Below are positions 17,832-36,351 of a stretch of 64,000 nucleotides of DNA, one piece after another (the stretch's first letter is position 1; each line of letters opens with the position of its first letter). Made by a program: the position numbers and the translations under genes. The notes beneath the pieces are model-generated. The model was not told where the DNA came from. It did not search any database and saw only the letters and a program-made list of their open reading frames with translations. This DNA comes from an uncultured Candidatus Saccharibacteria bacterium (GTDB lineage: Bacteria > Patescibacteriota > Minisyncoccia > Phycocordibacterales > PALSA-1337), in NCBI GenBank assembly GCA_964412585.1, contig CAYPPJ010000004.1, forward strand, positions 9,825-73,824, read 5' to 3'.

Positions 17832-17870
17832 GAGCTCATTATGTCTGATGTCTGTCCAAAAGCAAACATA

Positions 17871-17899
17871 TTGACAAATTAACTTATTTTAGTTACAAT
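17871..17899 (+). promoter_or_regulatory. Candidate sigma70 promoter (perfect -35 TTGACA, 17-nt spacer, -10 TACAAT) for the downstream plus-strand transporter gene
   Basis: Motif lies in the divergent intergenic region. Confidence 0.4.
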
Positions 17900-17925
17900 T
17901 TATTTAAACTTTGAAAGATACACAT

Positions 17926-18834: not shown

Positions 18835-18848
18835 TGTCTCTCGACAGC

Positions 18849-18880
18849 ACGCACCCTTGGAAACGAGGGTGCGTTTTTAT
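18849..18880 (+). terminator. Intrinsic terminator ACGCACCC-loop-GGGTGCGT followed by TTTTTAT
   Basis: 8-bp perfect stem plus a T-run directly after the transporter stop. Confidence 0.6.
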
Positions 18881-18882
18881 TT

Positions 18883-20094
18883 CTATTGTGTATCACCACT
18901 CACTTTCTCGTGATATTTCTTTTGTACGTAGAGCGGAACCGTCGCCACCGTCTCGGCAATATTCTTGGCGGTATCCTTTGCAAAATAAATGTCCGATGAC
19001 TCAAATCGCCCCTGAGCTATCTGCACTGTGATTGCATCCTTTATGGCAGACGTATGATATTGAACATCAAGAACATTTGCGCCACGCAAACGATTTTTTT
19101 GGCGGGAACCGATATTGACGACAGGGACGCCGAGATACGAGCATTCCTTGATGCCCGCTGACGAATTGCCCACCAAGCACTTTGATTTATTGAGAAGTGA
19201 AAGAAACTTCTTTGGTGGCAAATAGCGCATAAAGCGGATCTTATGATCCTTTACTTCATTATTGAAAATACGGAGTTCGTGCGAAATCTCCTCAGCACCA
19301 ATATCAACATTCGGCCAAAACCAAATAGTTGGGACCCCTAGTTCGTAAATCGCCTTGAGGACTTTCTTCGTCTGCTCCGGAAGTTTGGCATATTCGGTCG
19401 TCACTGGATGATAGAGAACGACGATAAATTCTTTGTCCACGTCAAATGGAGCTCCACTGCCTGTGTCATTCAAATCTATCGAATCACCATTTTTACCTAT
19501 TTTGTGGACGACTTCGATATCTGGACTGCCGAAATTGAAAACGTATTTTTTATTTTCACCCATGGCAATAATCCTCTGCTTTGCAGGGTCATTGGTCGCA
19601 AAATGTATGTGTGAAAGCTTGGTGATCGCATGCCGGACGCTCTCATCAAGAGTTCCTGAGACATCGCCACCTTCAATATGCGCAACGCTAATATTCATGT
19701 ATGCGGCAGCGGCAGCGGCAGCAAGAACCTCAAAACGATCGCCACGCACAATGACCACGTCAGGTCGGATCTCACCAAAAAGATTGGCGAACTCGACAAT
19801 GCCAAGACCCGCAGTCTTGGCTTTGACAACAGCACTATCCCCTTCAAGATTAAAAAAAACTTCGTGTATATTCTTGATACCATCTGCCTGAAGTAGTGAC
19901 CGTACTTGAGCAAATTTTGACGCATATTTGGAGAGAAGCGCACTGCCGCCAACAACAACATGGAGCTCCACGTCCTTTCTTTTTTTGAGTTCAGCCAGAA
20001 TAAGCATATTTCTGCTGTAATGAATGAAATTCGTTATGACAAAACAAATTTTTCTTTTTGGTTTTGGAGTAATCTTCTTTTTCGTGGTTTTCAT
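18883..20094 (-). CDS. UDP-N-acetylglucosamine 2-epimerase family, NeuC-like (hydrolysing type)
   Basis: Epimerase_2 fold with HIEGGDVSG in place of the HVEAGLR motif of non-hydrolysing enzymes. The start was trimmed to MKTTKKK to remove overlap with the neighbouring gene. Confidence 0.75.
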   Translation of the reverse strand: MKTTKKKITPKPKRKICFVITNFIHYSRNMLILAELKKRKDVELHVVVGGSALLSKYASKFAQVRSLLQADGIKNIHEVFFNLEGDSAVVKAKTAGLGIVEFANLFGEIRPDVVIVRGDRFEVLAAAAAAAYMNISVAHIEGGDVSGTLDESVRHAITKLSHIHFATNDPAKQRIIAMGENKKYVFNFGSPDIEVVHKIGKNGDSIDLNDTGSGAPFDVDKEFIVVLYHPVTTEYAKLPEQTKKVLKAIYELGVPTIWFWPNVDIGAEEISHELRIFNNEVKDHKIRFMRYLPPKKFLSLLNKSKCLVGNSSAGIKECSYLGVPVVNIGSRQKNRLRGANVLDVQYHTSAIKDAITVQIAQGRFESSDIYFAKDTAKNIAETVATVPLYVQKKYHEKVSGDTQ

Positions 20095-20104
20095 ATATGT
20101 CTGA

Positions 20105-20950
20105 TTAGCTGTTTTTGCCAAGTCTACCAGTATATTTTGCACGCGTCAGCTTTTCTTCAGGCAACAAATCGAGACTGCCGGTACCCAGTGCCGTCACATA
20201 TCGATCTCTCCACTCCACCAACTCTTTGAATACATGAGGCTCATCGGCAATACTGTGTGTCGTGATCGGCTTGAGACCTTTGCCGACGGTGTGTCCGATC
20301 TGGGGCGTATCGCGATCAAGCGTAAAATGCTTCTCAATATACTTTACACCCATGCCAAGAGAGAGCATGGCCGCAGATGCGCCCAGCACATGGTCAGAAT
20401 ATCCCACATGAGGTGTCTGCTCTTTGAGCCATGCAAGTTTACCGAGATTCGCCTTTTCCAACGGACACGGGTACACGGACACGCAATGCATGATCGTAAA
20501 TTCGCCTTTTTTAAGTATGTTGAGCGCTTTCTTTATTTCATCCTCAGTCGTCATGCCGGTCGAAGCAATAACCTCATCAAAATTATCGCGAAGTTGTTTC
20601 AAAAATGTGAAATGTTTGAGATCTGTACTCGCGACCTTGATTGATGTGAGTCCAAGCTTCTTGAGAAATGGGATGCGCGCAGCATCATAACACGTGGTCA
20701 TGAATTTGACGCCAGCTTTTTCACATTCTTTTTTGAGAATTATATGAGCTTCGTCTGAAAGTTCGAGAGAAGCGTAACGCTTTTTATCAGGATCTGAATC
20801 ATCGACATTTTTGCTCTGCCATGACTGAAACTTCACAATATCAACACCTGCATCCTTTGCAGCCCAAATCATCTTTTTCGCCAGCTCAATATCACCGTTA
20901 TGTGACGAGGCGATTTCAGCGATGATTTTCGGGGTATATCGTGCACTCAT
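20105..20950 (-). CDS. NeuB-family nonulosonate (sialic-acid-like) synthase, short form without the C-terminal SAF domain
   Basis: IIAEIASSHNGDIELAKKMIWAAKDAGVDIVKFQ TIM-barrel signature; 281 aa. Confidence 0.7.
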   Translation of the reverse strand: MSARYTPKIIAEIASSHNGDIELAKKMIWAAKDAGVDIVKFQSWQSKNVDDSDPDKKRYASLELSDEAHIILKKECEKAGVKFMTTCYDAARIPFLKKLGLTSIKVASTDLKHFTFLKQLRDNFDEVIASTGMTTEDEIKKALNILKKGEFTIMHCVSVYPCPLEKANLGKLAWLKEQTPHVGYSDHVLGASAAMLSLGMGVKYIEKHFTLDRDTPQIGHTVGKGLKPITTHSIADEPHVFKELVEWRDRYVTALGTGSLDLLPEEKLTRAKYTGRLGKNS

Positions 20951-21001
20951 AAGAAAACCTACTCTACCACACTTATGTGGTAGTCGTAAAGACCTGCCTG
21001 A

Positions 21002-21877
21002 CTATTTCTTTCCCTTCCCTTCTGCGAACAAATACACTCCCTTATCAACGGGCCGGTCATCTACAGAATGGAATGTTACCTGCCCGAAGTAAGGTGTGAG
21101 CAACCACTCCAAACTTTCCTTGCTAAAATAATTCTTGTGGTCAGGAGCATTCCAACGAGAACGTTTTGCGTCAGTATAAAACTGATCAGGATATCGGTTT
21201 GGCACACTCATGAAAAAAGTACCCGCCGGCGAAAGGAGCCGGAGCATATTCTTCATGGCATTGTGAAAATCAGAAATCGTTAGGTGTTCGAGCACTTCAA
21301 AAGCACAGACGCTGTCGTAGTATCCATCAGTTGTTTTCAGGTCTTCGATAGCAGATACCTCAAAACGAACTTTAGCGGCATCGCTGGTAGAAATTTTTCC
21401 CTGAGTACGCAAGGTGTTTAGCAATCCATCTGCGGTAGCAATAGCATCTGGCCGGAGATCAATACCAGCGACTTCACTAACCTGTGGAAGTTTGGCAATC
21501 TCAATAGTGACAGTTCCTGAAGAACAGCCCGTTTCCAATACTTTCGCACCAAAAGGAAGTGCCAAGGTGGTCTTGAGGCGCGCCGTATCATCGAGCCTCC
21601 AGGTTGCCAGCATCGGGTGTGTTGAGTCATTTTCTGGAGAATAGATATACTCGATCCTGTCGCGGAATTGTTGTGCACGCTTGATTTGCTCTTCACGCGT
21701 CCATTCATATTCATCGACAACTACAGGAAATATGTTCGTGGCAGTGTCTCGAGTCACGCCATTTTTTGACGCAAGTACAGACACTTCATTACCAGTACGA
21801 TCAACACCGACAACGATATCGGTATTGGTTGTTTCAATAATCCCCTGATAGTCCATGTGTTTGATTTCCAATTTCAT
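21002..21877 (-). CDS. Class I SAM-dependent methyltransferase
   Basis: Motif I VLETGCSSG and the post-I/II motifs; 291 aa. Confidence 0.7.
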   Translation of the reverse strand: MKLEIKHMDYQGIIETTNTDIVVGVDRTGNEVSVLASKNGVTRDTATNIFPVVVDEYEWTREEQIKRAQQFRDRIEYIYSPENDSTHPMLATWRLDDTARLKTTLALPFGAKVLETGCSSGTVTIEIAKLPQVSEVAGIDLRPDAIATADGLLNTLRTQGKISTSDAAKVRFEVSAIEDLKTTDGYYDSVCAFEVLEHLTISDFHNAMKNMLRLLSPAGTFFMSVPNRYPDQFYTDAKRSRWNAPDHKNYFSKESLEWLLTPYFGQVTFHSVDDRPVDKGVYLFAEGKGKK

Positions 21878-22417
21878 ATGACTAATACTATACTATACCC
21901 CATGAAAGAGTGCACTAAAATCAATCTCGGAGGAGGTAGGAACAAACAAGCAGGGTTCACCACTATCGATATCATTGCCTATCCAGAGGTTGATATTGTC
22001 GCTGATGTGACTAAAGGCATTCCCCTGCCCGACAATTCCGTCGAAGAAGTCCTCGCTCTAAGCATTATTGAGCATCTTGATGATACAGTCTTCATTATGG
22101 AAGAAATATACCGAGTCTGCAAAAATGAAGCCAAAATCATCATCACTGTACCGTATGTAAAATCAACCGCCGCATTCAAAGATCCGACGCACAAAAAATT
22201 CTTTACCGAGCGCACCTTTGAGTATTTTGACAAAAGTCTTCTCAATGCGGGCCGCCTCCCTGACTACCATATGAAATGTGATTTCCAAGTGAAAAACATT
22301 TCCTATAAATATTACACACCATGGTTCCGCCACGTCCCAGGTATCAATCGTATTTTTGCCCGCTTCTTTTGGGATATTATAAAAACACTCACGTTTGAGC
22401 TTCGGGTACGCAAATAG
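21878..22417 (+). CDS. SAM-dependent methyltransferase (Methyltransf_11/23-like)
   Basis: INLGGG... and LSIIEHLDD motifs. The start was moved to the internal Met to avoid overlapping the divergent neighbour. Confidence 0.6.
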   Translation: MTNTILYPMKECTKINLGGGRNKQAGFTTIDIIAYPEVDIVADVTKGIPLPDNSVEEVLALSIIEHLDDTVFIMEEIYRVCKNEAKIIITVPYVKSTAAFKDPTHKKFFTERTFEYFDKSLLNAGRLPDYHMKCDFQVKNISYKYYTPWFRHVPGINRIFARFFWDIIKTLTFELRVRK

Positions 22418-22454
22418 ATGAGCTGAAATAACATCCAAGGCGTACTTATACGCT

Positions 22455-23810
22455 TTAGAGATGTGAGACAATAAACGTCGAAATCCTGTCCACTGACTTT
22501 CCATCAAGAAACTGACACTGTGCTACGGCCAACTTTTTGCGTCCTTCAGTGTCTAGAGTTGGATCTTTGAGATACTTATTGACCCACGTTACCAATTCAT
22601 CGGTATTTCGAGCCATTCGTACTCCTCCATAACTGAGCGCTTTTGCATAATGCGTCATGCCATAAAATACTGTCGGGGATTTCGACAATTTACCATTGTC
22701 CTTGATCTCGAAATCAATATTGATGACTGGCTTATTAACGACAGCCGCATCGACTGAAATACTCGAGGCATAACACAGGATAAGCGACATGTGGTGCAAG
22801 GTATTACGCAATTCTTCAAGTTCGCGACCATTCATGTCCCAATCAGTTGAGCGTACAGATGAAAAACGGGTTCCCGGGATCTGGTAGTGCAAATACGGAC
22901 GCTTCTTGAGATCAGCATCCTTAATAAAGTCATTGGGAGAAAAACGCACGAGAATCTCGACATCATTGCCGAATTTCCCTGCCATATGCAACTCATGCAA
23001 GTGATCCATAATATCCCAATCCGAATTACTAAACATGCCGCCGATTGGCGAATAGACCACTAATTTCTTTTGTGGATCAATACCGATACTCTTGAAGAAT
23101 TCGTCGCGAGTCACACTTGGCGGTGAAAAATAATCATCATATTGAGGAATACCTGAAACAAAGAAATCCGAACGTGGGATGTGACTGTGCGTGGCCATCT
23201 GATCAAGGAGTGTGTCATTAAAGACGATAGTTTTGTCCGGGATCACCCGCAAAATACAGCGAGCCGTGGCGCGATCCCAACTATTGGTAAGCCCAATAGA
23301 TTTGACGCCATGCCGCTTGGCTGATTTGAGAAAATCGACTTCAAAATCCTCAAACAGATTGGCGAGTAAAATGAGATCGGGTTTGTACGTGCGGAAATAC
23401 TGATCAAAGACCGGATTTCTCGACAATAGGCGATCTAATGCACGAAATAACGCCACAAAGGGTCGATGCGCCAACATGCGATGTATGACACGCGAATAAT
23501 ACCAATACCACGCGCCACGGTCTTCTGAAACCATCTTGGCGCGCAGATCAGTAGTGCCTGTTTGTAGAAAAAGAAACTTCCACGAGCTAAAGAGTTTATG
23601 AATACCTACCTGATCATATGGTGCAACAATTTCATATGTTATACGAGGATCCGAAAATTCACGAGCATAATAGTCGGCGCGCTCCTTATTTTTTACAAAA
23701 AGCACTACGCGAGTACCGGAACTTTTTTTGAGAAGAGCATCGACAATACCGGTACGCAAAATATTCTTTGCCTCCACTCCTTCAAATACAGTAATAAAAA
23801 TCGTTTTCAT
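22455..23810 (-). CDS. Hypothetical GT-B-fold-like protein (TagF / KpsC-type capsule-transferase-like; candidate CMP-sugar-dependent transferase)
   Basis: 451 aa with a two-domain alpha/beta pattern and a KKLVVYSPIGG segment reminiscent of glycerophosphotransferase or capsule-transferase families. No definitive motif. Confidence 0.35.
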   Translation of the reverse strand: MKTIFITVFEGVEAKNILRTGIVDALLKKSSGTRVVLFVKNKERADYYAREFSDPRITYEIVAPYDQVGIHKLFSSWKFLFLQTGTTDLRAKMVSEDRGAWYWYYSRVIHRMLAHRPFVALFRALDRLLSRNPVFDQYFRTYKPDLILLANLFEDFEVDFLKSAKRHGVKSIGLTNSWDRATARCILRVIPDKTIVFNDTLLDQMATHSHIPRSDFFVSGIPQYDDYFSPPSVTRDEFFKSIGIDPQKKLVVYSPIGGMFSNSDWDIMDHLHELHMAGKFGNDVEILVRFSPNDFIKDADLKKRPYLHYQIPGTRFSSVRSTDWDMNGRELEELRNTLHHMSLILCYASSISVDAAVVNKPVINIDFEIKDNGKLSKSPTVFYGMTHYAKALSYGGVRMARNTDELVTWVNKYLKDPTLDTEGRKKLAVAQCQFLDGKSVDRISTFIVSHL

Positions 23811-26184: not shown

Positions 26185-26886
26185 ATGCATACTGTCAAAA
26201 AATGGATTCGCTCACTACTTAATAGCTTTGTACCGACCGAAAACCTCGTAGATAGCAAAAAAAAGTGGAATACGCTGGCAGAAAAAAATGCCGCGTATTT
26301 TGTGATGACTGACTACGGCGAAGGTATTACCGAGGAACAATTTAGGACTTCAGGCATGAAGGACTACGATCAACTGATAGGTGGTGACACATTACTCAAG
26401 ACTCGACTTTCTCCATTCAATACAAAGGACGTTATGGAAATTGGATGTGGTATTGGGCGCATAACAGAGTTTCTCTCAAAAAATTTCAAAACCGTTTCAG
26501 CTGTTGATATTTCCGAAGAGATGGTACGCAAAGGCGGACAGAGACTTTCATCGGCAAAAAATATAACTTTCAGGGCAACTGATGGGACGAGCTTCCCTTT
26601 TGCCAACGCTTCATTTGACTTCGTCTTTTCGTTTATAGTATTTCAGCATATGCCAGACAAACAGACTATTGAAAAAAATATAGCTGAAGTATCGCGCGTA
26701 CTCCGACCAGGTGGTATTGCAAAAATACAGCTTCGCGGATTGCCGACAAGTAAGAAAAATTGGTTCTATGGTCCCTCATTTTCGGTAGCCGATGCGCGCA
26801 AGCTACTCACAGATCTTCCACTCGCCATGATCGCCTCTGAAGGTGAAGGCCAGCGCTATTTCTGGATCTGGCTGGAAAAAAAGTAA
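26185..26886 (+). CDS. Class I SAM-dependent methyltransferase
   Basis: VMEIGCGIGRITEFL (motif I) and FDFVFSFIVFQHMPD. Confidence 0.65.
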   Translation: MHTVKKWIRSLLNSFVPTENLVDSKKKWNTLAEKNAAYFVMTDYGEGITEEQFRTSGMKDYDQLIGGDTLLKTRLSPFNTKDVMEIGCGIGRITEFLSKNFKTVSAVDISEEMVRKGGQRLSSAKNITFRATDGTSFPFANASFDFVFSFIVFQHMPDKQTIEKNIAEVSRVLRPGGIAKIQLRGLPTSKKNWFYGPSFSVADARKLLTDLPLAMIASEGEGQRYFWIWLEKK

Positions 26887-26929: not shown

Positions 26930-27988
26930 ATGCTAGCTTTAGGACAGACTCACTCCTTGAGTCACGATTTCACCCACAACCCAAGGAAACACATGAAGAT
27001 CATTAACATCGCCGGCCGAGCTGTCGGCCCTGGTTATCCCTGCTTCATCATTGCAGAGATTGGCATCAACCATAACGGCGACCTCAACGTTGCCAAAAAG
27101 CTCATTGACGCGGCCGCAGAGGCCGGCGCCGATGCAGTCAAGTTCCAGACTCGCACGGTTGAGGTTGTGTACACGCCAGAAGAACTGGCAAAGGCACGCG
27201 CAGTCCCTCGTAGCGTACTCGAAAATGGAATTCGCCGGGGGGTTCTCCCTCCAAGCGCAGTCGGGCGACTCACCGAGTCCAACTTCGAAGCCTCGACAAA
27301 CGGCGACCTCAAGCGGATTCTCGAGTTCACAGTTGACGAGTACCACGAGATCAGTCGCCACTGCAAACTGCGGGGGGTAATCTGGTTGACCTCGTGCTGG
27401 GACACCCAAGCACTCGAACGGATGCTCCCCTTCAACCTTCCCTGTCACAAGATCGCCTCGGCCTGTAACGAAGATGACGCACTGCTCATCGCTGCGCGTC
27501 AGACTGACAAGCCGGTCATCCTCTCGACAGGGATGACGGACCTCGACGGTGTAAGTGCGGCGGCTAATTTCCTCGACCTCGAGAAGCTCATCATCCTGCA
27601 CTGCACCAGTGTGTACCCCAAAGGTACGGAGCACGGGGACGAGTTGCTCTCGATGGTCAATCTCAATGGCATCGAGACCTTGGCCCGCATATTCGATGTG
27701 CCCATCGGCTTCTCCAGCCACTTCAGCGGCATCATGCCGGTGTATGCGGCGGTCGCCATGGGTGCATGCATGATCGAAGTCCACGTCACGCTCGAACGCG
27801 GGATGTACGGATCAGATCAGGCAAGCTCATTGGAACCGGCAGAGTTTGGCCGCCTCTTCAAGGCGACCAAAGAGCTTCACACCGCCAAGGGTAACGGTCG
27901 GATTGTCATCTACCCCGGCGAAGAAGAAGTCGCAAAGAAACTGCGGCGCGTGCGTCGGAAACAAAAGTCTGACGCTAGCCCGGCATAA
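26930..27988 (+). CDS. NeuB-family nonulosonate synthase, full length with a SAF-like C-terminal domain; markedly GC-rich compared with its surroundings
   Basis: PCFIIAEIGINHNGDLNVAKKLIDAAAEAGADAVKFQTR; 352 aa. Local GC is visibly near 60%. Confidence 0.75.
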   Translation: MLALGQTHSLSHDFTHNPRKHMKIINIAGRAVGPGYPCFIIAEIGINHNGDLNVAKKLIDAAAEAGADAVKFQTRTVEVVYTPEELAKARAVPRSVLENGIRRGVLPPSAVGRLTESNFEASTNGDLKRILEFTVDEYHEISRHCKLRGVIWLTSCWDTQALERMLPFNLPCHKIASACNEDDALLIAARQTDKPVILSTGMTDLDGVSAAANFLDLEKLIILHCTSVYPKGTEHGDELLSMVNLNGIETLARIFDVPIGFSSHFSGIMPVYAAVAMGACMIEVHVTLERGMYGSDQASSLEPAEFGRLFKATKELHTAKGNGRIVIYPGEEEVAKKLRRVRRKQKSDASPA

Positions 27989-28027
27989 GTCGGCACGTAG
28001 AAGAGCGTACTCGTGAGAAGAAAGTCA

Positions 28028-28060
28028 CCGGCAGGGTCCCAACCCCTGCCGGATTTTTTA
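28028..28060 (+). terminator. Intrinsic terminator CCGGCAGGG-TCCCAAC-CCCTGCCGG followed by ATTTTTTAT
   Basis: Perfect 9-bp stem plus a T-run. Confidence 0.7.
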
Positions 28061-28061
28061 T

Positions 28062-28095
28062 ACAAAAAAACCCGCGCGGTGTACCCGCGCGGGTT
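28062..28095 (-). terminator. Intrinsic terminator AACCCGCGCGG-TGTAC-CCGCGCGGGTT followed by TTTTTTT on the minus strand
   Basis: Perfect 11-bp stem. It sits back-to-back with the previous terminator between convergent genes. Confidence 0.7.
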
Positions 28096-28111
28096 GTGAA
28101 AAAAGATCGAA

Positions 28112-29155
28112 TCAGTGCGAAATAACCGGCTCAGTGAAATGCATGAGGGCCTTGTAGGCAACCTCCACATCATAGGGTTTTAACTTTGCCGTGTTCTCAG
28201 GCGTCGGAGGCGTGAGCCCTGAAAGGTCAACGGGCTCCGTGAGCGAGTGGCAGCACCCCAATTCGACAACAGGCACCTGGTCAAGCCCTGTCAGTTCCTT
28301 GAGCTCATCACGCGCCGAAGGCACCCAGAGCGACCCAGTGACCTTCCCTGCCTGGGCCGAAGTGGTAAGTAGAGTGCTCCAGCTCGAGAAGGTCGCATCA
28401 CTCGCGATAACAACCGGATCTGACTTGCCAACGGTGGGCAGGTACACGACACGAGAGCCGAGAGGTGCCAACATTTCCGTCCAAACTTCCCCATACGTGC
28501 GGCCACCTGCCTCAAGGGCACGTCCCTCCTCAAGACATGCACGTTTGGCATGTTTTGGATGGAAACGCGGGATGAGACACCAGTTGCCAGTAGTCAGCTT
28601 GAGGCAAGCGATTAAAAACTCGATCTCGTCCGCCGTCCATTCGCCGCCACCGACGTAGGTGTACACCTTCGTAAACTCCGTGCGAAGATCGGCGACCTCG
28701 GGAGCCGGGATGATTGACCCTGGTTGAGGAACACCGGGATTGCCGACGATGAGTTTCCCCGCCGCAGGATGCAGTTGGTGCGTAAGCATCGCGTCGTACT
28801 CATCCAACACCAGAACCCCATAAGGATTCGCGGTAGAACGGTTGACGCCACGCCAGAAGTCAATGCATTCGATGAGCTTGATGCCCAGCTCGTTTGCGAC
28901 AAGGCCGAACTGCTGTTCAAGATTGATCGGACTACCGAGCCCGGTCACGACAGCATCCGGTTTGATTTTCCGCAATACGGCATGAGCGTCAATAGTGAAC
29001 GGCTCATCAATGAAGTTCACCGTGCCTTTGAAGTACAAGGTGAAGCCGGCTTTTTCAAATATGCCGGCCGCCAAGCCTTCGGCAATCACGACAACTTCAT
29101 GACCCTTGTCGCGGCAGATTACCGCGAGCGAGCACGTGACGTTTGCTCCTCCCAT
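28112..29155 (-). CDS. Hypothetical GC-rich protein, possibly a MurG/PseG-like GT-B fold (candidate UDP-sugar hydrolase or glycosyltransferase)
   Basis: 347 aa. The N-terminus GGANVTCSLAVICRDKGHEVVVI loosely resembles the MurG/PseG G-loop. Assignment is weak. Confidence 0.3.
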   Translation of the reverse strand: MGGANVTCSLAVICRDKGHEVVVIAEGLAAGIFEKAGFTLYFKGTVNFIDEPFTIDAHAVLRKIKPDAVVTGLGSPINLEQQFGLVANELGIKLIECIDFWRGVNRSTANPYGVLVLDEYDAMLTHQLHPAAGKLIVGNPGVPQPGSIIPAPEVADLRTEFTKVYTYVGGGEWTADEIEFLIACLKLTTGNWCLIPRFHPKHAKRACLEEGRALEAGGRTYGEVWTEMLAPLGSRVVYLPTVGKSDPVVIASDATFSSWSTLLTTSAQAGKVTGSLWVPSARDELKELTGLDQVPVVELGCCHSLTEPVDLSGLTPPTPENTAKLKPYDVEVAYKALMHFTEPVISH

Positions 29156-29324
29156 GTCTTTTGCTACGAATAGAAGTTTCAGAACTACCTCCGATAGTTT
29201 ACTAGTTAATATGAAGAGGCACTACGCCCCGAATTTCAACGAAGACAGGACTATTCCTGCTTTCAATTCAAGTCAAACCCTAACATAATAATTGAATGAA
29301 GTCAACTATCCTTGATTTGTATAG

Positions 29325-29375: not shown

Positions 29376-29891
29376 TTAGGCTTTGACCTCCTCCATTCCA
29401 TCTTCCAATGGAAGTCCGAGCAATTGATTGACTCGCCGAATCCTCGCCGGCAGCCGCTGCCGCGCGTGCATTTTGGCTTGAGCATCTTGGAACACAGCTT
29501 CGTCGATTTCCATGAGCCCATCAACTCCACCGTAATAATGCAGTCCAGTGTTTGCCCACTGCCATTCTTGTTCCATCTGCTTTTTTTCTTGTCTGAAGAA
29601 ACCATGACCGATTTCAGTCAAAGAAAAAATACGGGCGGAGATCGTGAAGATTTTAACTTCAGTCCCATATTCCTCAGGGATATCAAAGCAAATAAATGTG
29701 GCGTTCCGCGCCGCCACCTGCTTCAGGCAGTCCTCACGCGCAGCTCCAATTAATTGTGCTGCGAGCGCAGAAGGGTGCGCTGCGGGACCTTCCTGAGCAA
29801 CCCCGGTAACTTTCCCAAGGTCAGACAGATATCGACCGAGAGATATTACCTCATATGCAGTAATTTCCAGGACAGTTGTTGTCACACTCAT
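29376..29891 (-). CDS. Hypothetical protein
   Basis: 171-aa ORF with no recognisable motif. A terminator follows it. Confidence 0.4.
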   Translation of the reverse strand: MSVTTTVLEITAYEVISLGRYLSDLGKVTGVAQEGPAAHPSALAAQLIGAAREDCLKQVAARNATFICFDIPEEYGTEVKIFTISARIFSLTEIGHGFFRQEKKQMEQEWQWANTGLHYYGGVDGLMEIDEAVFQDAQAKMHARQRLPARIRRVNQLLGLPLEDGMEEVKA

Positions 29892-30059: not shown

Positions 30060-30824
30060 ATGAAAGCAAGGCGCCCAGTAAAGCATAAAGTTATCGCTCT
30101 CATCCCTGCTCGTGGCGGTTCAAAAGGGGTACCAAAAAAGAATATCCATCCATTGGCAGGCTATCCATTGCTGGCTTACTCCATTGCAGCCGCAAAGCTC
30201 GCAAAAGGTGTCGAACGTATCATTGTTAGTACTGACAATGAAGAGATTGCTGAGGTTGCAAAAAAATATGGAGCTGAAGTTCCCTTTCTCCGACCGGCCG
30301 AGTTTGCTACTGACAAATCAAAGGATATAGATGTCGTCAAGCATGTACTTGATTGGCTCAAGACACATGAGAATCACCACCCTGATTTTTTGATATACTT
30401 GCGCCCGACAACCCCTCTTCGAGATCCACGACATATCGAAGAAGCAATCAAGCTCATACGCGCATCAAAAACGTCCACATCATTGCGCTCAGGTCACGAG
30501 ATCCGCGAGTCGCCCTACAAACTATTTGGCATCAATGACGGACACTTCGCTGGACTATTTCCGGATGATCCTCGCCCTGAATATTACGACCTACCCCGAC
30601 AAACATTTCCTCCTGTCTATCAGCCAGATGGCTATGTCGACATTCTCGTCACCAGGCACATCACGAGCTCTTCGAGCCTCCACGGTCCACGTATTCGCGC
30701 CTACGCTAGCCCGAATACCGGCGAAATAGATTCAAAAGATGATTTTAGATTCACTGAATACACCCTCGAAAAAAATATCTGGGCGATCTACGAATATCTC
30801 AAGAAACATTTTCCTATCCAGTAA
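30060..30824 (+). CDS. CMP-nonulosonate cytidylyltransferase (second copy)
   Basis: IALIPARGGSKGVPKKNIHPLAGYPLLAYSI; 254 aa. Confidence 0.8.
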   Translation: MKARRPVKHKVIALIPARGGSKGVPKKNIHPLAGYPLLAYSIAAAKLAKGVERIIVSTDNEEIAEVAKKYGAEVPFLRPAEFATDKSKDIDVVKHVLDWLKTHENHHPDFLIYLRPTTPLRDPRHIEEAIKLIRASKTSTSLRSGHEIRESPYKLFGINDGHFAGLFPDDPRPEYYDLPRQTFPPVYQPDGYVDILVTRHITSSSSLHGPRIRAYASPNTGEIDSKDDFRFTEYTLEKNIWAIYEYLKKHFPIQ

Positions 30825-32070
30825 TACCGAGAGCGTCACGGATGACTCCTGACGCCTCGCGTATAGCTGCGGCAGTAATAGTAAGTGGCGGAGCAATCTT
30901 TATAGAATTTCTGTTGGTGCATACAGGTAATACCCCTTTCATGATGCACTCTTTGACGACACGCGTCGCATCTTCGGTCTTTTCAAAAATAAGGGCCGCG
31001 ATCATGCCTCTGACATTGACCTGACGAACCATCGGCGACTTCTCAAATGACTTCATTTCCTGTTCGAATACCTTCATGGCTTTTTTCTGAGCAGCAACTT
31101 GTTTTGCGCTTGAAAGGAATTCAAGGTTTGCGAGAGCGGAGGCACACGAAACAGCATTACCTGAGTGCGTGCCATGCAAATCAGCTTTTGGATCAATGTT
31201 CATAATCTTTTTGTTGCCCAGAAGCGCCGAGATCGGCAACGATGAAGAAATGCCTTTACCGACAGCGACCAAATCAGGCACGATATCTTTTCCGTAGGTC
31301 ATATAACCATATATCGGTCCGAGGCGATAAAAACCAGACTGTAGTTCATCAAAGCATACGAGTGCGCCATGTTTCTTGGCAAACTTCGAAAGATCATTGA
31401 GGAAACCGTCCGGAAAGAACCATGCACCCCATCCTTGAAATGTTTCTATGACGAACCCTGCAATCTCATTATGCGGAGGCAGAATGCTTGGATCAAACTT
31501 TGCCGTAGGATCATAGGGAAAATCCAAGAAACAGACCGCCTCATCAGTCATACCTGACCATGCAGCCTTCTGTTTGCTCCCGGCGATCAGATCATTACTC
31601 AAACCACGACCATGATATCCACCACCAAAAGTGACGATGTATTTTTTATGTGTCTTGGTGCCATGTAATTTGATCAACTTGTATGCGATATCCACGGCCT
31701 CTGACCCGGAATTGAGTAAGGTGGCACAATCAAAATGTCGCGATGCCGCCAAAAGCTTTTTGAGAAATTGATATTTAATCTTCGTCGGATAGTTGTACGC
31801 AAACAACACGTCAGCATCAACTTGGTCTTTGATGGCCTTTTTTATTTTCGGATTCGAATGTCCCGCGTTTGCCACGAATATACCGGAGGTGAGATCGATG
31901 AACTTATTGCCCTTGTCATCCCACACAGAAAAGTCTACAGCCTTTGCCCAGGTGAGAGGAATGGTGTTGGCAACCGAAACTGGCTCCATATCGGCAATTT
32001 GCTTGTAAAGCTCATTATTTTTCAGTGAAAAATCATCCCGAATCTGTCTGTAAGTAGTTTTTATTTTCAT
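30814..32070 (-). CDS. Class-III (PLP-dependent) aminotransferase
   Basis: Aminotran_3-like pattern: GSEAVDIAYKLIK, DELQSGFYRLG and the lysine region LVAVGKGISS. The start was trimmed to MKIKTTYRQI. Confidence 0.7.
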   Translation of the reverse strand: MKIKTTYRQIRDDFSLKNNELYKQIADMEPVSVANTIPLTWAKAVDFSVWDDKGNKFIDLTSGIFVANAGHSNPKIKKAIKDQVDADVLFAYNYPTKIKYQFLKKLLAASRHFDCATLLNSGSEAVDIAYKLIKLHGTKTHKKYIVTFGGGYHGRGLSNDLIAGSKQKAAWSGMTDEAVCFLDFPYDPTAKFDPSILPPHNEIAGFVIETFQGWGAWFFPDGFLNDLSKFAKKHGALVCFDELQSGFYRLGPIYGYMTYGKDIVPDLVAVGKGISSSLPISALLGNKKIMNIDPKADLHGTHSGNAVSCASALANLEFLSSAKQVAAQKKAMKVFEQEMKSFEKSPMVRQVNVRGMIAALIFEKTEDATRVVKECIMKGVLPVCTNRNSIKIAPPLTITAAAIREASGVIRDALGITG

Positions 32071-32150
32071 GCAAAAGTAAGCATACATGAGAACGAAACC
32101 CCTCGCAAGGATTCATTTACACCCCTCTCGATATACTATAGTATATCGAC

Positions 32151-33095
32151 ATGAATATGACCTACACCACGCTTGGCCGGACAGGACTCAAGGTTTCCCG
32201 CATCGGACTGGGGACCGCTGAAATAGGTTTCTCGTATGGTATTGGTGAGAGGCCACTTCCCTCTGAAGCTGAAGCGATCGATCTTCTCAAGAAATCGGTT
32301 GATCTCGGTATTACTTTTTTTGATACAGCAAGCTATTACGGTGTGGCAGAAGAACGCATCGGCAAGTCAGGAATCCTGAAAAATCCCGATATTATTGTCG
32401 AAACAAAATGCGCACAGTTCCTTGAAAAAGGCGAAAAATACGCACTGCCCGAGCTTACAGAAAAAATAACAGTGCAAGTAGATGAAAGCTTGAAAAAACT
32501 GCGAATTGATTCCCTACCTATCCTCATGTTGCACGGGCCAAGTGTTGAAGATATTAACCGTGGCGAACTTACGGGAATATTAAAAGACCTCAAACAAGCA
32601 GGTAAAATCCGCTTCACAGGAGTTTCAACTCGCGGTGAAGAGTCGCCGCTTGCAGCTATTAATTCAGGCTTCTTCGATGTTATACAAGTAGCCTACAATA
32701 TTCCTGACCAACGCATGGAACCAAAAGTATTTCCGACGGCACAAAAAGCTGGTGTTGGCATCATAAATAGATCAGTACTCCTCAAAGGGTCACTGACTGC
32801 ACTCAGAACAAAATTACCAGCCGGCCTCGAAGGCTTGCAACAGACTGTTGATGAAATTGAAGCGATTGCTCGTGAAATCGGCACCGACCTGCCTACACTA
32901 GCGATTCGTTTTGCGCTCAATAATCCATGTATTTCATCATCATTGATTGGCACCAATAAACTTGGTAATGTTGAAAAAGCGATTCGTGCCCTCGAAGCAG
33001 GCCCGTTACCACCAGAGATCGCTGCCAGACTACACAAAGTTGCCCTTAATACACCTAACCAAGTCGATCCTGCCCAATGGCCAAAACTACAATGA
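32151..33095 (+). CDS. Aldo/keto reductase
   Basis: The N-terminus LGRTGLKVSRIGLGTAEIG and the FFDTASYYG segment are AKR signatures. Confidence 0.8.
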   Translation: MNMTYTTLGRTGLKVSRIGLGTAEIGFSYGIGERPLPSEAEAIDLLKKSVDLGITFFDTASYYGVAEERIGKSGILKNPDIIVETKCAQFLEKGEKYALPELTEKITVQVDESLKKLRIDSLPILMLHGPSVEDINRGELTGILKDLKQAGKIRFTGVSTRGEESPLAAINSGFFDVIQVAYNIPDQRMEPKVFPTAQKAGVGIINRSVLLKGSLTALRTKLPAGLEGLQQTVDEIEAIAREIGTDLPTLAIRFALNNPCISSSLIGTNKLGNVEKAIRALEAGPLPPEIAARLHKVALNTPNQVDPAQWPKLQ

Positions 33096-34036
33096 ACTGC
33101 CCCATCTGCAACAAACCATCACCAAAAGTGATAGCTGACACTCTGCGAACTGGAGAAAAAAGAAAAGTCTTTTTGTGTACACGCTGTGATGTGGGCATTC
33201 TCGATGCCCACATCAGTGCCGCTGATCTCAAGAAATATTACGCCAGCGAGTACAGAAAAATCGGCAGGCCCAAGCTCGCGGCCACATCTGAGACTGATGA
33301 ACTTTTTTCAATTTATTCACGATTTCAGGATGACCGGCTTCGCCTACTCAAACCATACCTCACCAAGAACACAAAACTCCTTGAAGTCGGCTGCTCAGCT
33401 GGCATGTTTCTCTATCATGTAAAACCTCTGGTCAAAGAAATAGTCGGTATCGATTTTGACCTTGCTTCAGCAGCGTATGCGGCAAAAAAATGCCACTGCA
33501 AAGTCTATACCACCGACATCAAAGAAACTCCTCTTAAGAAGAAATATTTTGACGTGATTGTTGCCTTTCAGACACTGGAACATGTGAGTGATCCAAAAGC
33601 ATTTATCGCTGGTCTTGAAGAATATCTCGCTCCAGGAGGTGTCATCGCCATCGAAGTGCCAAACCTCAATGATGCCTTGGCACACGTGTACAACCTACCT
33701 CGTCATTATCAATTTTTCTATCACAAATCCCATCTCTGGTATTTTACCGAGAAGAGCCTTGAAAAAGTCATGGCTTCGTCCGGTTTCAAAGGAAAGACAT
33801 TTCATACGCAGGACTACAACATCATGAACCACATGAACTGGATTGTGAATGATGCGCCACAAGGCACGCCACTTGCCGGACTATCGGCACCTGTTCTGCC
33901 TATTCGAACAAATGCATCACCACAAATCACAAAGACGCTTGATACATTCATCAAGCGCATGGATATTGAATACAAAAAAACACTTGCCGATCTGAAGATT
34001 ACCTCAAATATTATCTTCATTGGAAAAAAGAAATAA
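33077..34036 (+). CDS. SAM-dependent methyltransferase with an N-terminal zinc ribbon
   Basis: CPICNK...CTRCDVG followed by the MTase motif I LLEVGCSAGMF. Confidence 0.65.
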   Translation: MAKTTMNCPICNKPSPKVIADTLRTGEKRKVFLCTRCDVGILDAHISAADLKKYYASEYRKIGRPKLAATSETDELFSIYSRFQDDRLRLLKPYLTKNTKLLEVGCSAGMFLYHVKPLVKEIVGIDFDLASAAYAAKKCHCKVYTTDIKETPLKKKYFDVIVAFQTLEHVSDPKAFIAGLEEYLAPGGVIAIEVPNLNDALAHVYNLPRHYQFFYHKSHLWYFTEKSLEKVMASSGFKGKTFHTQDYNIMNHMNWIVNDAPQGTPLAGLSAPVLPIRTNASPQITKTLDTFIKRMDIEYKKTLADLKITSNIIFIGKKK

Positions 34037-34112
34037 TTTGACACTTCCAAATTTTACTGTTAGATTGTGACCAGTTTTACAACGCAATAATTGCACAAAA
34101 ACCTAACTGAAT

Positions 34113-34655
34113 ATGAGCGCAACGTTACAACCGACGGTCATCATACCGATGCTCGAGCGGAGACTCAAGCTGATCAAACTCTTTGCCACAGACTTTGACG
34201 GGATCCACACAGATGGCACCGTCCTCGTTGATGAGCATGGAACCGAGAGCGTCCGCTGCAGCCGCAAGGATGGCCTCGGGTATGCCATGCTAGCCAAAGC
34301 AGGTATCCACGCCTGTGTCATCTCCAAGGAGAAAAATCAGGTGGTGTTGAGGCGCTGTGAAAAACTCGGTATTCCCTGCTTCAACATGGTCCATGACGGC
34401 CAGGGCAAGCGAGAAATCCTCAAGCGTGTCTCAGAAGATCTGGGGCTCCGGCCAGAACATGTCCTCTACATGGGCGATGACCTCAACGACCTCGAGGCTC
34501 TCAAATTTGCTGGGGTATCTGTCAGCGTACGTGATGGGCACCCGTCCATCTTGGAGACAGTGGATATTATCACGCACCGAGCAGGAGGTGACCATGCCGT
34601 TCGAGAGGTCTGCGAACTCCTCATGGTCGCACGGGGCCGGTCGCTCAAATTCTGA
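34113..34655 (+). CDS. KdsC-family HAD phosphatase (3-deoxy-ulosonate phosphate or N-acylneuraminate-9-phosphate phosphatase)
   Basis: FATDFDGIHTDG (DxD HAD motif I) and YMGDDLNDLEAL (motif IV); 180 aa, typical of the YrbI/KdsC family. Confidence 0.8.
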   Translation: MSATLQPTVIIPMLERRLKLIKLFATDFDGIHTDGTVLVDEHGTESVRCSRKDGLGYAMLAKAGIHACVISKEKNQVVLRRCEKLGIPCFNMVHDGQGKREILKRVSEDLGLRPEHVLYMGDDLNDLEALKFAGVSVSVRDGHPSILETVDIITHRAGGDHAVREVCELLMVARGRSLKF

Positions 34656-34670
34656 TTCGGCTTCTGCCGC

Positions 34671-34703
34671 CAAAACGCCAAGGCTGTCCTTGGCGTTTTT
34701 TAT
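34671..34703. terminator. Bidirectional intrinsic terminator AAAACGCCAAGG-CTGT-CCTTGGCGTTTTTT between convergent genes
   Basis: Perfect 9-bp stem flanked by an A-run and a T-run. Confidence 0.7.
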
Positions 34704-34711
34704 ATTTAGTA

Positions 34712-35539
34712 TTACCAGGCAGTCTTTCCTCCATCAACCACAAGATTGTGCCCTGTCATGAACCGTGAAGCGTCCGAGCTCAAAAAGATGATAGGACCGA
34801 TATAATCCTCCGGCGTTGCCATACGGCCAAACATGGTCATGTCGCCATAACGTTTTACAAAAGCTTTGTCCTGAGCGGGTGTTTGAACTCCTGTTGGAGA
34901 AAATGTATTAATGCGTACATTGTACATGCCGAGGCGGGCCGCCCACTGTCTCGTAAAGCCAAGCAGAGCGGATTTGGTTGTTGAATATGCTATTGATTTG
35001 AAACGTTTTCCTGCTGGGTCATTATACACACGATGGTCATGGGCAATAACAGATACGTCTGAGCCGATATTGATGACCGAACCCGATCGTTGTTTGATCA
35101 TGTGTTTGGCAACAGATTTCGTGCACAACATTGTTCCGGTAAGATTTACGCGTAGTTCCTTCTCCCACAAATCAATCGGATATTCTTCGTAGGGAGCAAA
35201 TTGAGAAGCTGAATCAGCACTGCCGACTGCCGGATTGAGAGCGGCGTTGTTGATAAGCACATCTATTTTTTTGTGTTTTTTGATGATAGCTCGCACAGCA
35301 TGCTGAACGCTTTTTTCATCAGTAATATCAACCTTCTCGACCTCAGCCTTGACGCCGTTCTTTTTTAATATGTTTCGAGCCTGCTCCATACCGTGCTCAT
35401 CTTTTGCATCCCATAGGACTGGATACGCTCCAGCTTTACCCAACGCAATAGCATACGTCAGCCCCAAAAAACCCGCGCCACCGGTAATGATGATGACCTT
35501 ACCTTGTACTGAAAAAACATCTTCGTTGGTCTTTTTCAT
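34712..35539 (-). CDS. Short-chain dehydrogenase/reductase (SDR)
   Basis: TGGAGFLG and YSTTKSAL (YxxxK). Start trimmed to MKKTNEDV, which makes an ATGA overlap with the upstream gene. Confidence 0.75.
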   Translation of the reverse strand: MKKTNEDVFSVQGKVIIITGGAGFLGLTYAIALGKAGAYPVLWDAKDEHGMEQARNILKKNGVKAEVEKVDITDEKSVQHAVRAIIKKHKKIDVLINNAALNPAVGSADSASQFAPYEEYPIDLWEKELRVNLTGTMLCTKSVAKHMIKQRSGSVINIGSDVSVIAHDHRVYNDPAGKRFKSIAYSTTKSALLGFTRQWAARLGMYNVRINTFSPTGVQTPAQDKAFVKRYGDMTMFGRMATPEDYIGPIIFLSSDASRFMTGHNLVVDGGKTAW

Positions 35540-36351
35540 AGTGATGAAAGGGTTGAAATAATAAACTGTAATTGATTCTGGGCATCTCGAAGATAGTCCT
35601 CCCCGCGCCATGCTTGAATAGTCAAGACACCTTTGTATCCTATAGCTTTCAATGCCGTAAAACAACCCTTGAAATCGGCATCGCCGGTACCAAGAAGCAT
35701 CGACTGAGTTTTGCCGATCTTGCGATCCTTCACGTGAACTTCAAAAATACGTGCACCAAGAGTCTTGATATCGTTGGGACAATCGAATCCGTACGATGTA
35801 CAGTTTCCGATATCATAAGAAACACCGATATTTTTTTCAGCACATGAATCAATGTATGCAGCGAGTTCACCTGCAGGCATCTCTGTCTCCAATGCAATTT
35901 TCAAACCATGCTCTTTGGCAACAGCGGCAATCGTTGAAATCGATTGGTGCGCCTCAGTTTTTTCATCTGAGGTCGCTGGCGCCTGGTCTTCCAGCAAAGG
36001 TACGGAGAGTGTCTTGGTCGATAGATGAGGTGTCACCAATGGTATAAATGTCTTGAAAGCCTGTATCGAAGCCACTGCCTCCAGACCAAACAATTTGTAC
36101 CTGCCACAATCAACTGAACTAACTGGTACTTGCTGAGAAGCTATCTCAATCCGTGACACCGCCTCAGGTCGACCCCACACATCTCTGATCGGATCAAATC
36201 CCTTGATGTCGCGGTCAAGAAACCATTCGATAGCATTGAATCCAAGTTTTTTGGCGAGGGCAAATTCAGCTTCCCACTGTTCAGGAAAAAACTGAAGCCG
36301 ACCACCTTGCGGCGCAGAAAGTCGCCCCTGCATTATCGCGATATGGTTCAT
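35536..36351 (-). CDS. Sugar-phosphate isomerase/epimerase, xylose-isomerase-like TIM barrel
   Basis: 271 aa. The pattern GFNAIEWFLD...EVHVKD fits the AP_endonuc_2 / TIM-barrel family. Confidence 0.6.
   Translation of the reverse strand: MNHIAIMQGRLSAPQGGRLQFFPEQWEAEFALAKKLGFNAIEWFLDRDIKGFDPIRDVWGRPEAVSRIEIASQQVPVSSVDCGRYKLFGLEAVASIQAFKTFIPLVTPHLSTKTLSVPLLEDQAPATSDEKTEAHQSISTIAAVAKEHGLKIALETEMPAGELAAYIDSCAEKNIGVSYDIGNCTSYGFDCPNDIKTLGARIFEVHVKDRKIGKTQSMLLGTGDADFKGCFTALKAIGYKGVLTIQAWRGEDYLRDAQNQLQFIISTLSSL

Follow-up and report, generated by a model that had tools for sequence, protein, structure and literature searches.

A conserved GC-rich gene pair encoding a NeuB-family synthase and a candidate GT-B glycosyltransferase in a Patescibacteria surface-glycan locus

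A 64-kb window (64,000 nucleotides of contig CAYPPJ010000004.1 from an uncultured Candidatus Saccharibacteria bacterium) contains a surface-glycan locus in which two convergent genes stand out by their GC content. NeuB2 (26993..27988, + strand) encodes a NeuB-family phosphoenolpyruvate (PEP)-condensing synthase, and GTB347 (28112..29182, - strand) encodes a GT-B-fold enzyme. The pair belongs to the old, conserved content of the locus and is not a recent foreign import. We favor, with modest confidence, the reading that the pair has long been part of a surface-glycan locus with two ulosonic-acid branches in a Patescibacteria (Taylorbacteria-like) genome, that it belongs to the route of the second branch, and that its GC richness is a stable trait. 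The favored candidate role of GTB347 is that of a cytidine monophosphate (CMP)-ulosonate glycosyltransferase, which is proposed from sequence comparisons, gene neighborhood, and a structure model. The GTB347 family of candidate transferases was previously unnamed; the class of NeuB proteins without a SAF domain, to which NeuB2 belongs, is already known.

Composition and conservation of the NeuB2-GTB347 pair

Coordinates are those of the 64-kb window throughout, and composition was compared to a background of 55 window genes. The segment 26993-29182 is the compositional extreme of the window. The GC content is 0.580 in the 1-kb bin 27001-28000 and 0.562 in the bin 28001-29000, compared to ~0.45 elsewhere, and all 1-kb windows with a GC of at least 0.54 fall within 26.7-29.2 kb. 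In 200-nt bins, GC rises from ~27000 and falls at ~29100-29200, which are the boundaries of the two coding sequences. The tetranucleotide distance in 2.19-kb windows has its maximum at 27001 (0.432 compared to a median of 0.201). NeuB2 has a GC of 0.576 (z 3.9) and a third-position GC (GC3) of 0.699 (z 4.0), and GTB347 has a GC of 0.558 (z 3.3) and a GC3 of 0.625 (z 2.8); the background values are 0.456 (sd 0.030) and 0.457 (sd 0.060). These data bear out the statement of an earlier note on this DNA that the pair has a GC far above the rest of the locus. The GC at fourfold-degenerate sites is 0.688 for NeuB2 (z 2.8), 0.622 for GTB347 (z 2.0), and 0.461 ± 0.082 for the background, and GC at the first and second codon positions (GC1 and GC2) is slightly raised too (z 1.2-1.9). 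The amino acid composition combined with background codon usage predicts a GC of only 0.488 for NeuB2 and 0.500 for GTB347, so the excess is mostly synonymous (~60%).

A third gene, located 5 kb away, matches the pair in GC richness. It encodes a KdsC-family phosphatase (34149-34655, +) with a GC of 0.558, a GC3 of 0.651 (z 3.2), and a fourfold-site GC of 0.698. Among the related loci, designated here by L numbers, the phosphatase gene is GC-rich where the pair is (the window, L010, L013, L024, and L019) and is not GC-rich in L029. In L029, the genes for the phosphatase, NeuB, and the GT-B protein are contiguous, co-directional, and operon-like. The shared GC richness in the same relatives and the contiguity in L029 suggest that NeuB2, GTB347, and the phosphatase form a compositional and functional three-gene unit.

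Two intrinsic terminators, one per strand, are located between the stop codons of the convergent genes. The NeuB2 terminator (28028-28052, +; feature 28028..28059) has a 9-bp perfect stem with 8 GC pairs (arms CCGGCAGGG/CCCTGCCGG) followed by the T-run ATTTTTT. The GTB347 terminator (28095-28069, -; feature 28062..28095) has an 11-bp perfect stem with 9 GC pairs (arms AACCCGCGCGG/CCGCGCGGGTT) followed by the T-run TTTTTG. The earlier note was correct that two perfect GC-rich hairpins separate the genes, but it described them as bracketing an island, and they are located inside the pair rather than around it. The pair would be transcribed convergently with each gene ending at its own terminator. 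The + strand terminator probably also ends an operon of NeuB2 and MT233, the S-adenosylmethionine (SAM)-dependent methyltransferase gene directly upstream. In L010 and L013, compensatory changes preserve the NeuB2 hairpin, which in L007 has a positional equivalent; the GTB347 terminator has positional equivalents in all three. L024 has a single bidirectional hairpin instead of the two terminators.

Homologues of both proteins come almost entirely from Patescibacteria metagenomes and metagenome-assembled genomes (MAGs), and every close homologue is from Patescibacteria. Among species-representative genomes, the nearest is a Candidatus Taylorbacteria MAG (L013), whose GT-B protein is 85% identical to GTB347. 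L010, L013, L007/L020, and L024 all carry the pair at this site, and in L010, L013, and L007 it is convergent, placed between an MT233 orthologue and the branch 2 genes, and provided with equivalent terminators. The GC values of the two genes are 0.557/0.582 in L010 (background 0.456), 0.54/0.57 in L013 (background 0.479), and 0.470/0.476 in L007, which is the same as L020 (background 0.381). The GT-B gene also exceeds the GC of its own locus by 0.10 in L017/L021, L024, and L025, by 0.12 in L027, and by 0.06 in L016 and L019. Protein identity to L013 is 81-85% for the pair and 82-87% for the flanks, and identity to L007 is 63-67% for the pair and 57-79% for the flanks. The offset of ~+0.10 holds while host GC ranges from 0.38 to 0.48, and synonymous sites must be saturated at this divergence; the pattern therefore resembles a stationary bias of the genes themselves and not the remainder of an ameliorating import.

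Some observations weigh against the favored reading. There is little or no GC offset in L029, L037, and L018. The background gene set is without ribosomal or other highly expressed genes, which bears on expression-linked codon bias. Identity to L010 is 70-80% for NeuB2, GTB347, and the phosphatase compared to 83-94% for the flanks, and this lower similarity of the trio shows some recombination or mosaicism, so inheritance was not purely vertical; in the comparison to L013, the trio and its flanks are equally similar. The class-III aminotransferase of the locus (30814-32088, -) is 90.6% identical to that of L010, whereas the corresponding position of L013 (7684-9057, GC3 0.55) has a 457-aa aminotransferase with only 37% identity to it, which shows cassette-like replacement inside the locus.

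As the source of the pair, the earlier note had offered a high-GC donor or an ongoing replacement. A recent horizontal acquisition of a two-gene cassette would fit a GC and GC3 that lie 3-4 sd above the window genes, the sharp steps at the coding sequence borders, the mostly synonymous excess, and a mosaic locus in which the trio is less like L010 than its flanks and the L013 aminotransferase is a different gene. We nevertheless consider it very unlikely. Relatives down to 63-67% protein identity, in backgrounds of 0.38-0.48, have the same position, terminators, and offset, and a decaying foreign signal should not hold constant while host GC shifts. The divergence of the pair tracks that of the flanks in L013 and L007, the best matches are all from Patescibacteria, and no homologue of the pair was found in a matching high-GC background. 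The 64-kb window contains no tRNAs. There are no mobility genes such as integrases at the borders of the pair, where the neighbors are biosynthetic, and the direct and inverted repeats found there are short and at chance level. The pair thus shares with classical horizontally acquired genomic islands the sharp compositional step at gene borders and differs from them in lacking mobility genes, a tRNA, and direct repeats, in keeping its site and offset in relatives, and in having homologues of the same lineage. These data largely refute a recent import event, and they support neither a high-GC donor nor an ongoing replacement. The earlier note had held that codon usage within the genome background, together with best hits in the lineage of the flanking genes, would count against its proposal; the best matches do share the lineage of the flanks, whereas codon usage does deviate from the background. 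The opposite extreme, that the GC excess is a by-product of protein composition or chance with no biological meaning, draws on the somewhat raised GC1 and GC2 and on the amino acid composition, which lifts the expected GC to 0.49-0.50. This explanation is highly improbable. It conflicts with the synonymous share of the excess, with a fourfold-site GC of 0.62-0.69 compared to 0.46, with the GC richness of the same three genes in at least five independent lineages, and with the fact that no other region of the window is as extreme as the pair.

The favored alternative to both is that GC richness is a stable, gene-specific trait of NeuB2, GTB347, and the phosphatase that would move in parallel with host GC across lineages. 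The cause may be selection on these genes or, in a glycan locus that recombines, GC-biased gene conversion; alternatively, exchange between relatives may have preserved the distinct character of an ancient cassette. The pair is a conserved compositional island that mimics horizontal gene transfer, and a sharp GC island alone is no evidence of recent transfer. Because the offset is kept across lineages that differ by 10 points in GC, composition-based calls of horizontal transfer in such genomes need a comparative check.

NeuB2 and the GTB347 family

The NeuB2 open reading frame (ORF) is open from 26930, and the start is most likely ATG 26993, giving 331 aa, because public gene calls and homologue alignments agree on it. 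The 331-aa gene call is found, 100% identical, on 11 public contigs. PF03102 is the sole Pfam match (5.3e-60; 203.3 bits compared to a cut-off of 22.1). The scores against the equivalog models are about half of the cut-offs: 213.7 compared to 399.65 bits for TIGR03569 (N-acetylneuraminate synthase) and 174.2 compared to 340.25 bits for TIGR03586 (pseudaminic acid synthase). The SAF (antifreeze-like) domain PF08666 has no match in NeuB2, which stops ~25 residues past the barrel; some NeuB homologues at other loci do carry SAF.

NeuB2 shares with the NeuB, LegI, and PseI enzymes (PF03102; TIGR03569, TIGR03586; PDB 1XUZ, 8H2C, 6NCS) the TIM-barrel PEP-condensing domain, with template modeling (TM) scores of 0.7-0.84, and a locus that includes a CMP-synthetase. 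The AlphaFold2 model of NeuB2 has a mean predicted local distance difference test score (pLDDT) of 93.2. Foldseek matches it to Neisseria meningitidis NeuB (TM 0.75-0.76) and to the SAF-less 290-aa Leptospira NeuB 6NCS (TMt 0.84), and also to PseI and SpsE. The catalytic residues, which bind PEP and metal, are E22, K50, K153, S241-H (GFSSH), and E262/H264, and they are invariant in alignments with 2WQP, 6NCS, and the subfamily. The N. meningitidis reference residues used in this comparison are E25, K53, K129, H215, E234, and H236, and the E134 position did not align. NeuB2 thus has equivalents of E25 and E234 (E22 and E262), the two lysines, and both metal-binding histidines (GFSSH and IEVH). 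In contrast to these enzymes, it has no SAF domain, hence no equivalent of R314, and it has a 26-aa helical insertion. The insertion is located inside a confidently modeled helical segment (residues 56-109). It is present in most of the NeuB2 subfamily; a ~295-aa subset is without it. The subfamily also has additional residues past beta2 that are missing from the other synthase of the locus, NeuB1. NeuB2 is ~26-29% identical to the solved enzymes, and NeuB1 and NeuB2 are 27% identical, as distant from one another as each is from characterized enzymes. Placement relative to NeuB, PseI, and LegI was judged from model scores and PDB bit scores. SAF-less NeuB homologues are common in environmental bacteria (PMC8208679), and NeuB2 is a further case of these already described proteins.

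GTB347 is annotated as a 347-aa protein from ATG 29155. Its start is likely CTG 29182, which would give 356 aa and place the public annotations 9 codons late at an internal ATG. The 352 and 347 aa of the earlier note for the two proteins are therefore likely to be 331 and 356. The start at CTG 29182 is assigned because the upstream strand and a GGAGG are conserved in relatives. In the window, this Shine-Dalgarno sequence is at 29188-29192 with a 5-nt spacer to CTG 29182, and a start at ATG 29155 would remove the first beta-strand of the fold. GTB347 homologues start ~9-14 residues earlier than the annotation with MK(L/V)LFV(A/S)KD, and the upstream codons in the window read LKLLFVAKD. The N-terminal strand xK(L/F)LF(V/I)AKD is kept in relatives with the same GGAGG arrangement and the start codons CTG in L010 (~9974), ATC in L013 (~9998), and TTG in L007 (10001).

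GTB347 has no match in Pfam or NCBIfam, and PF04464 and NF046086 do not match it even at E<=1. The AlphaFold2 model, built with 45 homologues, has a pLDDT of 95.7 and a predicted TM score of 0.90. It consists of two Rossmann-like domains that form a cleft, a C-terminal helix crosses back, and the secondary-structure order is that of GT-B. All of the top 50 Foldseek matches are GT-B enzymes, led by E-value by GT1 antibiotic glycosyltransferases and MurG. The earlier description of the protein as GT-B-like and unassigned to a family holds. An exhaustive profile search for the family found 2119 representative clusters at E<1e-3, of which 216 were also below 1e-30; a word-indexed homology search under-reports the family, with 46 matches. 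Lengths among the best 150 matches listed are 205-430 aa, mostly ~330-380. The family comprises ~200 or more 50%-identity clusters in genomes of Patescibacteria, also termed the candidate phyla radiation (CPR), and in uncultured metagenome contigs. One homologue found by tblastn, at L026 10001-11047, is 40% identical, has its ORF only in fragments, and may be a pseudogene or a frameshift.

The conserved residues of the family are D9, E35, P85, D108 (invariant), W110, R115, D127, G147, H208-P209, P304, and G309. H208 of the HP motif is invariant and P209 nearly so, and the motif stands directly past C-beta2. The (E)-D108-x-W-G motif past N-beta5 resembles, but is not identical to, the D/E-D/E-G motif that, along with an HP motif, characterizes bacterial GT-B sialyltransferase-type enzymes. 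In the model, the conserved residues are predicted to lie at the C-terminal ends of strands and in the inter-domain cleft, a mapping made by secondary-structure position.

In Tannerella forsythia, nonulosonates are transferred by TagB/GT-B proteins that carry D/E-D/E-G and HP motifs, and these are the only genetically supported nonulosonate transferases of the TagB/GT-B type (PMC5420450). GTB347 shares with the T. forsythia TagB/TagF-like transferases (Tanf_01245, TFUB4_00887, BFO_1060; NF046086) and with TagF/TarL (PF04464) a GT-B-type fold, the HP motif past the second strand of the C-terminal domain, acidic residues after strands of the N-terminal domain, the setting in a NeuB/CMP-synthetase locus, and remote homology. 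It differs from them in being ~100 residues shorter with ~14% identity, in being known here from sequence and a model, and in having its own motif set (KDxGG, AEGL, SPINLE, EDxWG..RS, GNPG, RFHPK, and SxxSTLL). In hhalign comparisons, the GTB347 family matches the TagF/BFO_1060-like proteins of the same loci with a probability of 97.0% (E 1e-10, 281 columns) and the Epimerase_2 proteins of the same loci with a probability of 77.7% (E 1.9e-5). By this measure, GTB347 is nearer to the TagF/TagB-like putative nonulosonate transferase of the locus than to the 2-epimerases. Weak Pfam matches of family members were to Glyco_transf_4 (12/45) and to Glyphos_transf (PF04464; 2/47 distant members, best 1.2e-7), and none of the 45 + 47 members matched Epimerase_2 (PF02350). 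The GT-B gene adjoins a NeuB-family gene in 10 of 13 loci, and in all 13 it lies within a locus that has both NeuB and CTP_transf_3.

Some of the evidence weighs against a transferase, and much of it would fit a divergent NeuC- or PseG-type nucleoside diphosphate (NDP)-sugar hydrolase or 2-epimerase that feeds a free aldose to NeuB2. The best Foldseek TM-scores of GTB347 (0.56-0.61) are to uridine diphosphate N-acetylglucosamine (UDP-GlcNAc) 2-epimerases including NeuC. In a PDB profile search, a weak UDP-sugar 2-epimerase match (E 8e-4), with aligned 'HVEAG'-like and 'HP(R/K)' segments, is ahead of TarL (E 0.043). An HP-type motif is found in epimerases too ('FPVHPR') and is not proof of a CMP donor. 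Branch 2 of the window and L019 are without an Epimerase_2 gene of their own, and the GTB347 gene adjoins NeuB. In addition, GTB347 occurs together with a TagF-like protein in some loci that have a single NeuB (L017/L021, L029, and L037), which speaks against a simple pairing of one transferase with each ulosonate. A 2-epimerase or hydrolase is unlikely all the same. The catalytic residues of 2-epimerases are D95, E117, E131, and H213 (Escherichia coli WecB numbering). When GTB347 is aligned to 8SXW, the Asp of 'GDT' faces Gly/Ser and the His of 'HRxE' faces Gly/Gln, leaving no equivalents of D95 and H213, and only the region of the 'HVEAG' Glu aligns, with E107/D108 of GTB347. Thus, GTB347 shares with WecB/MnaA and the hydrolyzing NeuC (PF02350) the best superpositions and the strand-end motifs 'GN' and 'HP(R/K)', but it has no conserved counterpart of the 'GDT' Asp and the 'HRRE' His and gives the weaker profile-profile match. 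It also co-occurs with genuine Epimerase_2 genes, which are present in L016, L017, L018, L027, and L037, and both the NeuB-isomerase fusions described below and the KdsC-type phosphatase suggest that the precursor is a sugar phosphate and not an NDP-sugar. A TagF-type phosphotransferase that adds an alditol- or sugar-phosphate from a cytidine diphosphate (CDP) donor to a teichoic acid-like polymer would agree with the remote homology to the TagF-like family, the TarL match, and the two family members that match Glyphos_transf. We regard it as quite improbable, since no TagD/TarI-type cytidylyltransferase was seen in the locus, where the only type is the PF02348 CMP-ulosonate type, and since the GTB347 gene consistently stands beside NeuB genes. 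A CDP-glycerol teichoic acid pathway was rejected for the want of a TagD-type gene. One further match in the PDB profile search, to a Rossmann segment of succinate-semialdehyde dehydrogenase with 'HPK' (2e-6), looked spurious and was disregarded.

Two ulosonic-acid branches in the locus

The gene map was derived from public gene calls with Pfam annotation on identical metagenome contigs, which were found in several metagenomes, and from Pfam and NCBIfam scans. The window is chromosomal since it contains SecA and GatB elsewhere. There are two NeuB-family and two NeuA-family genes, as counted in the earlier note, and the paralogues of each family are only ~27-32% identical to one another. A second, distinct ulosonic-acid branch in the locus is the best reading of this arrangement.

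Branch 1 occupies 17118..23810 on the - strand. It contains cytidylyltransferase A (CTP_transf_3; 17118-17831), NeuC (18883-20094; TIGR03568 351.8 bits compared to a cut-off of 235.9), NeuB1 (20105-20950; 281 aa), and a TagF/BFO_1060-like glycosyltransferase (22455-23810; Glyphos_transf 1.9e-6; NF046086 8.7e-11, below the cut-off), and the region also includes methyltransferases. NeuB1 is below the equivalog cut-offs (TIGR03569 193.4 compared to 399.65; TIGR03586 138.2). Both synthases of the organism are non-canonical because NeuB1, like NeuB2, is SAF-less and below cut-off. In branch 1, NeuC, NeuB1, and cytidylyltransferase A would act together with the TagF/TagB-like protein as a putative nonulosonate transferase.

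Two proteins without known function lie between branch 1 and MT233 (26185..26886, +; Methyltransf_25/11 ~1e-22), which has a GC of 0.43. MT233 is on the same strand as NeuB2, and their adjacency is kept in L010, L013, and L007, making MT233 a probable operon partner of NeuB2. On the other side of the pair, cytidylyltransferase B of branch 2 (30060..30824, +) matches CTP_transf_3 (PF02348, 8.9e-22) and scores 135.1 bits against the TIGR03584 PseF model (cut-off 205.7); it adjoins the GT-B gene in L010, L013, L019, L024, and L025. The branch 2 companion set (30814..36351) follows and accompanies the pair in L010, L013, L019, and L024. The set consists of the class-III aminotransferase, an aldo-keto reductase (32151-33095, +), a methyltransferase (33077-34036, +), the KdsC-family haloacid dehalogenase (HAD)-type phosphatase, a short-chain dehydrogenase/reductase (SDR; 34712-35539, -), and an AP_endonuc_2 protein resembling sugar-phosphate isomerases and epimerases (35536-36351, -). 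The phosphatase scores 109.7 bits against TIGR01670 (cut-off 106.95) and 89.7 bits against the 3-deoxy-D-glycero-D-galacto-nonulosonic acid (Kdn)-9-phosphate phosphatase model, below the specific equivalog cut-offs. In L025, the cytidylyltransferase, a NeuB+Cupin_2 protein, and the GT-B protein are encoded in an operon-like run.

The earlier note had suggested a contrast between pseudaminic acid (Pse) and legionaminic or neuraminic acid (Leg/Neu) for the two branches. A second branch is indeed found; this contrast is the wrong one because NeuC of branch 1 is bona fide, branch 2 resembles a sugar-phosphate route with a KdsC-type phosphatase, and no PseB/C/H/G-type genes were seen in family scans of the window. 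A Pse pathway was rejected on the same absence and on the presence of NeuC. The known systems nearest to branch 2 are the Kdn- and N-acetylneuraminic acid (Neu5Ac)-9-phosphate pathways, represented by the Kdn-9-phosphate synthase, phosphatase, and CMP-Kdn synthetase of Bacteroides thetaiotaomicron and by animal NANS, NANP, and CMAS. Branch 2 shares with them a NeuB-family synthase, a KdsC-family HAD phosphatase, and a PF02348 cytidylyltransferase, and it differs by adding the class-III aminotransferase, the SDR, the aldo-keto reductase, the AP_endonuc_2-like gene, and several methyltransferases. These additional conserved genes point to a modified (amino or methylated) product.

Gene fusions in the related loci connect the synthase with domains that resemble sugar isomerases, and they connect CMP activation with transamination. 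NeuB is fused to SAF and AP_endonuc_2 in proteins of 637-641 aa (L018 805-2718 and L037 8004-9929) and to Cupin_2, a cupin like that of lyxose/mannose isomerases, in a 510-aa protein (L025 8362-9894), and CTP_transf_3 is fused to Aminotran_3 in a 707-aa protein (L007 6412-8535). From these fusions and the KdsC-type phosphatase, we infer that the aldose used by NeuB2 probably comes from an isomerized and then tailored sugar phosphate rather than from an NDP-sugar. In the proposed route, NeuB2 would condense PEP with an aldose. This substrate would probably be a sugar phosphate that is produced or modified by the neighboring isomerase-like, SDR, class-III aminotransferase, and aldo-keto reductase enzymes. 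The phosphate would be removed by the GC-rich KdsC-type phosphatase, and cytidylyltransferase B would make the CMP-sugar. GTB347, distantly related to TagF/TagB, would transfer the sugar to the growing glycan. The cleft residues that may carry out this chemistry are D9 after N-beta1, E35, D108-x-W110, R115, D127, H208-P209 of the 'HP' motif after C-beta2, and S269-T270 at a helix N terminus. A bolder version of the proposal is tentative and rather doubtful. It holds that GTB347 founds a new glycosyltransferase family beyond CAZy and Pfam that transfers a CMP-ulosonic acid from a SAF-less, insertion-bearing NeuB route, that the product is a new amino- or methyl-modified surface sugar resembling Kdn or 3-deoxy-D-manno-octulosonic acid (Kdo), and that the trio is a cassette in which an active process, such as biased gene conversion, maintains the GC-rich codon usage.

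Nonulosonate transferases are few and hard to spot from sequence (PMC5420450). The GTB347 family is compact, unnamed in databases, and tightly linked to NeuB, and it offers a concrete candidate family of ulosonate transferases. Patescibacteria live attached to host cells. The locus would give a first handle on their surface sugars and ulosonic-acid glycans, and a search of the full-text literature found no paper that joins Patescibacteria or CPR with nonulosonic or sialic acid.

Other genes of the window and related loci

The rest of the surface-glycan locus encodes a Wzx flippase, GT2, GT4, and GT9 enzymes, and a WecB-like epimerase. The gene at 14644-17052 encodes a Wzy_C-TPR protein that resembles a ligase or an oligosaccharyltransferase. 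Between the GT-B gene and cytidylyltransferase B there is a 171-aa ORF (29376-29891, -) that has no Pfam or NCBIfam match and has its own terminator (29358-29334). All same-population contigs have this ORF, but L013 does not, and neither does L010 in its orthologous 230-nt divergent spacer, which makes the ORF a lineage-specific insertion.

A raised GC3 (0.58-0.61) is also found in genes outside the trio: a NUDIX hydrolase (38798-39295, -), a 150-aa ORF without a Pfam match (55536-55988, -), and an EamA-like membrane ORF (17944-18834, +) that is missing from the orthologous L010 site. Downstream of the glycan locus, a 657-aa protein (53457-55430, -) has weak matches to TrwB/TraG-type coupling proteins and HerA-like ATPase domains and may belong to a system resembling type IV secretion or DNA uptake. 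Related glycan loci encode a B12-binding radical-SAM protein of ~570-600 aa, of which no counterpart was seen in the window. Its genes (L024 2027-3727, L025 2949-4766, L029 4690-6465, and L037 6139-7896) have a GC of 0.51-0.58 compared to 0.40-0.47 for their neighbors.

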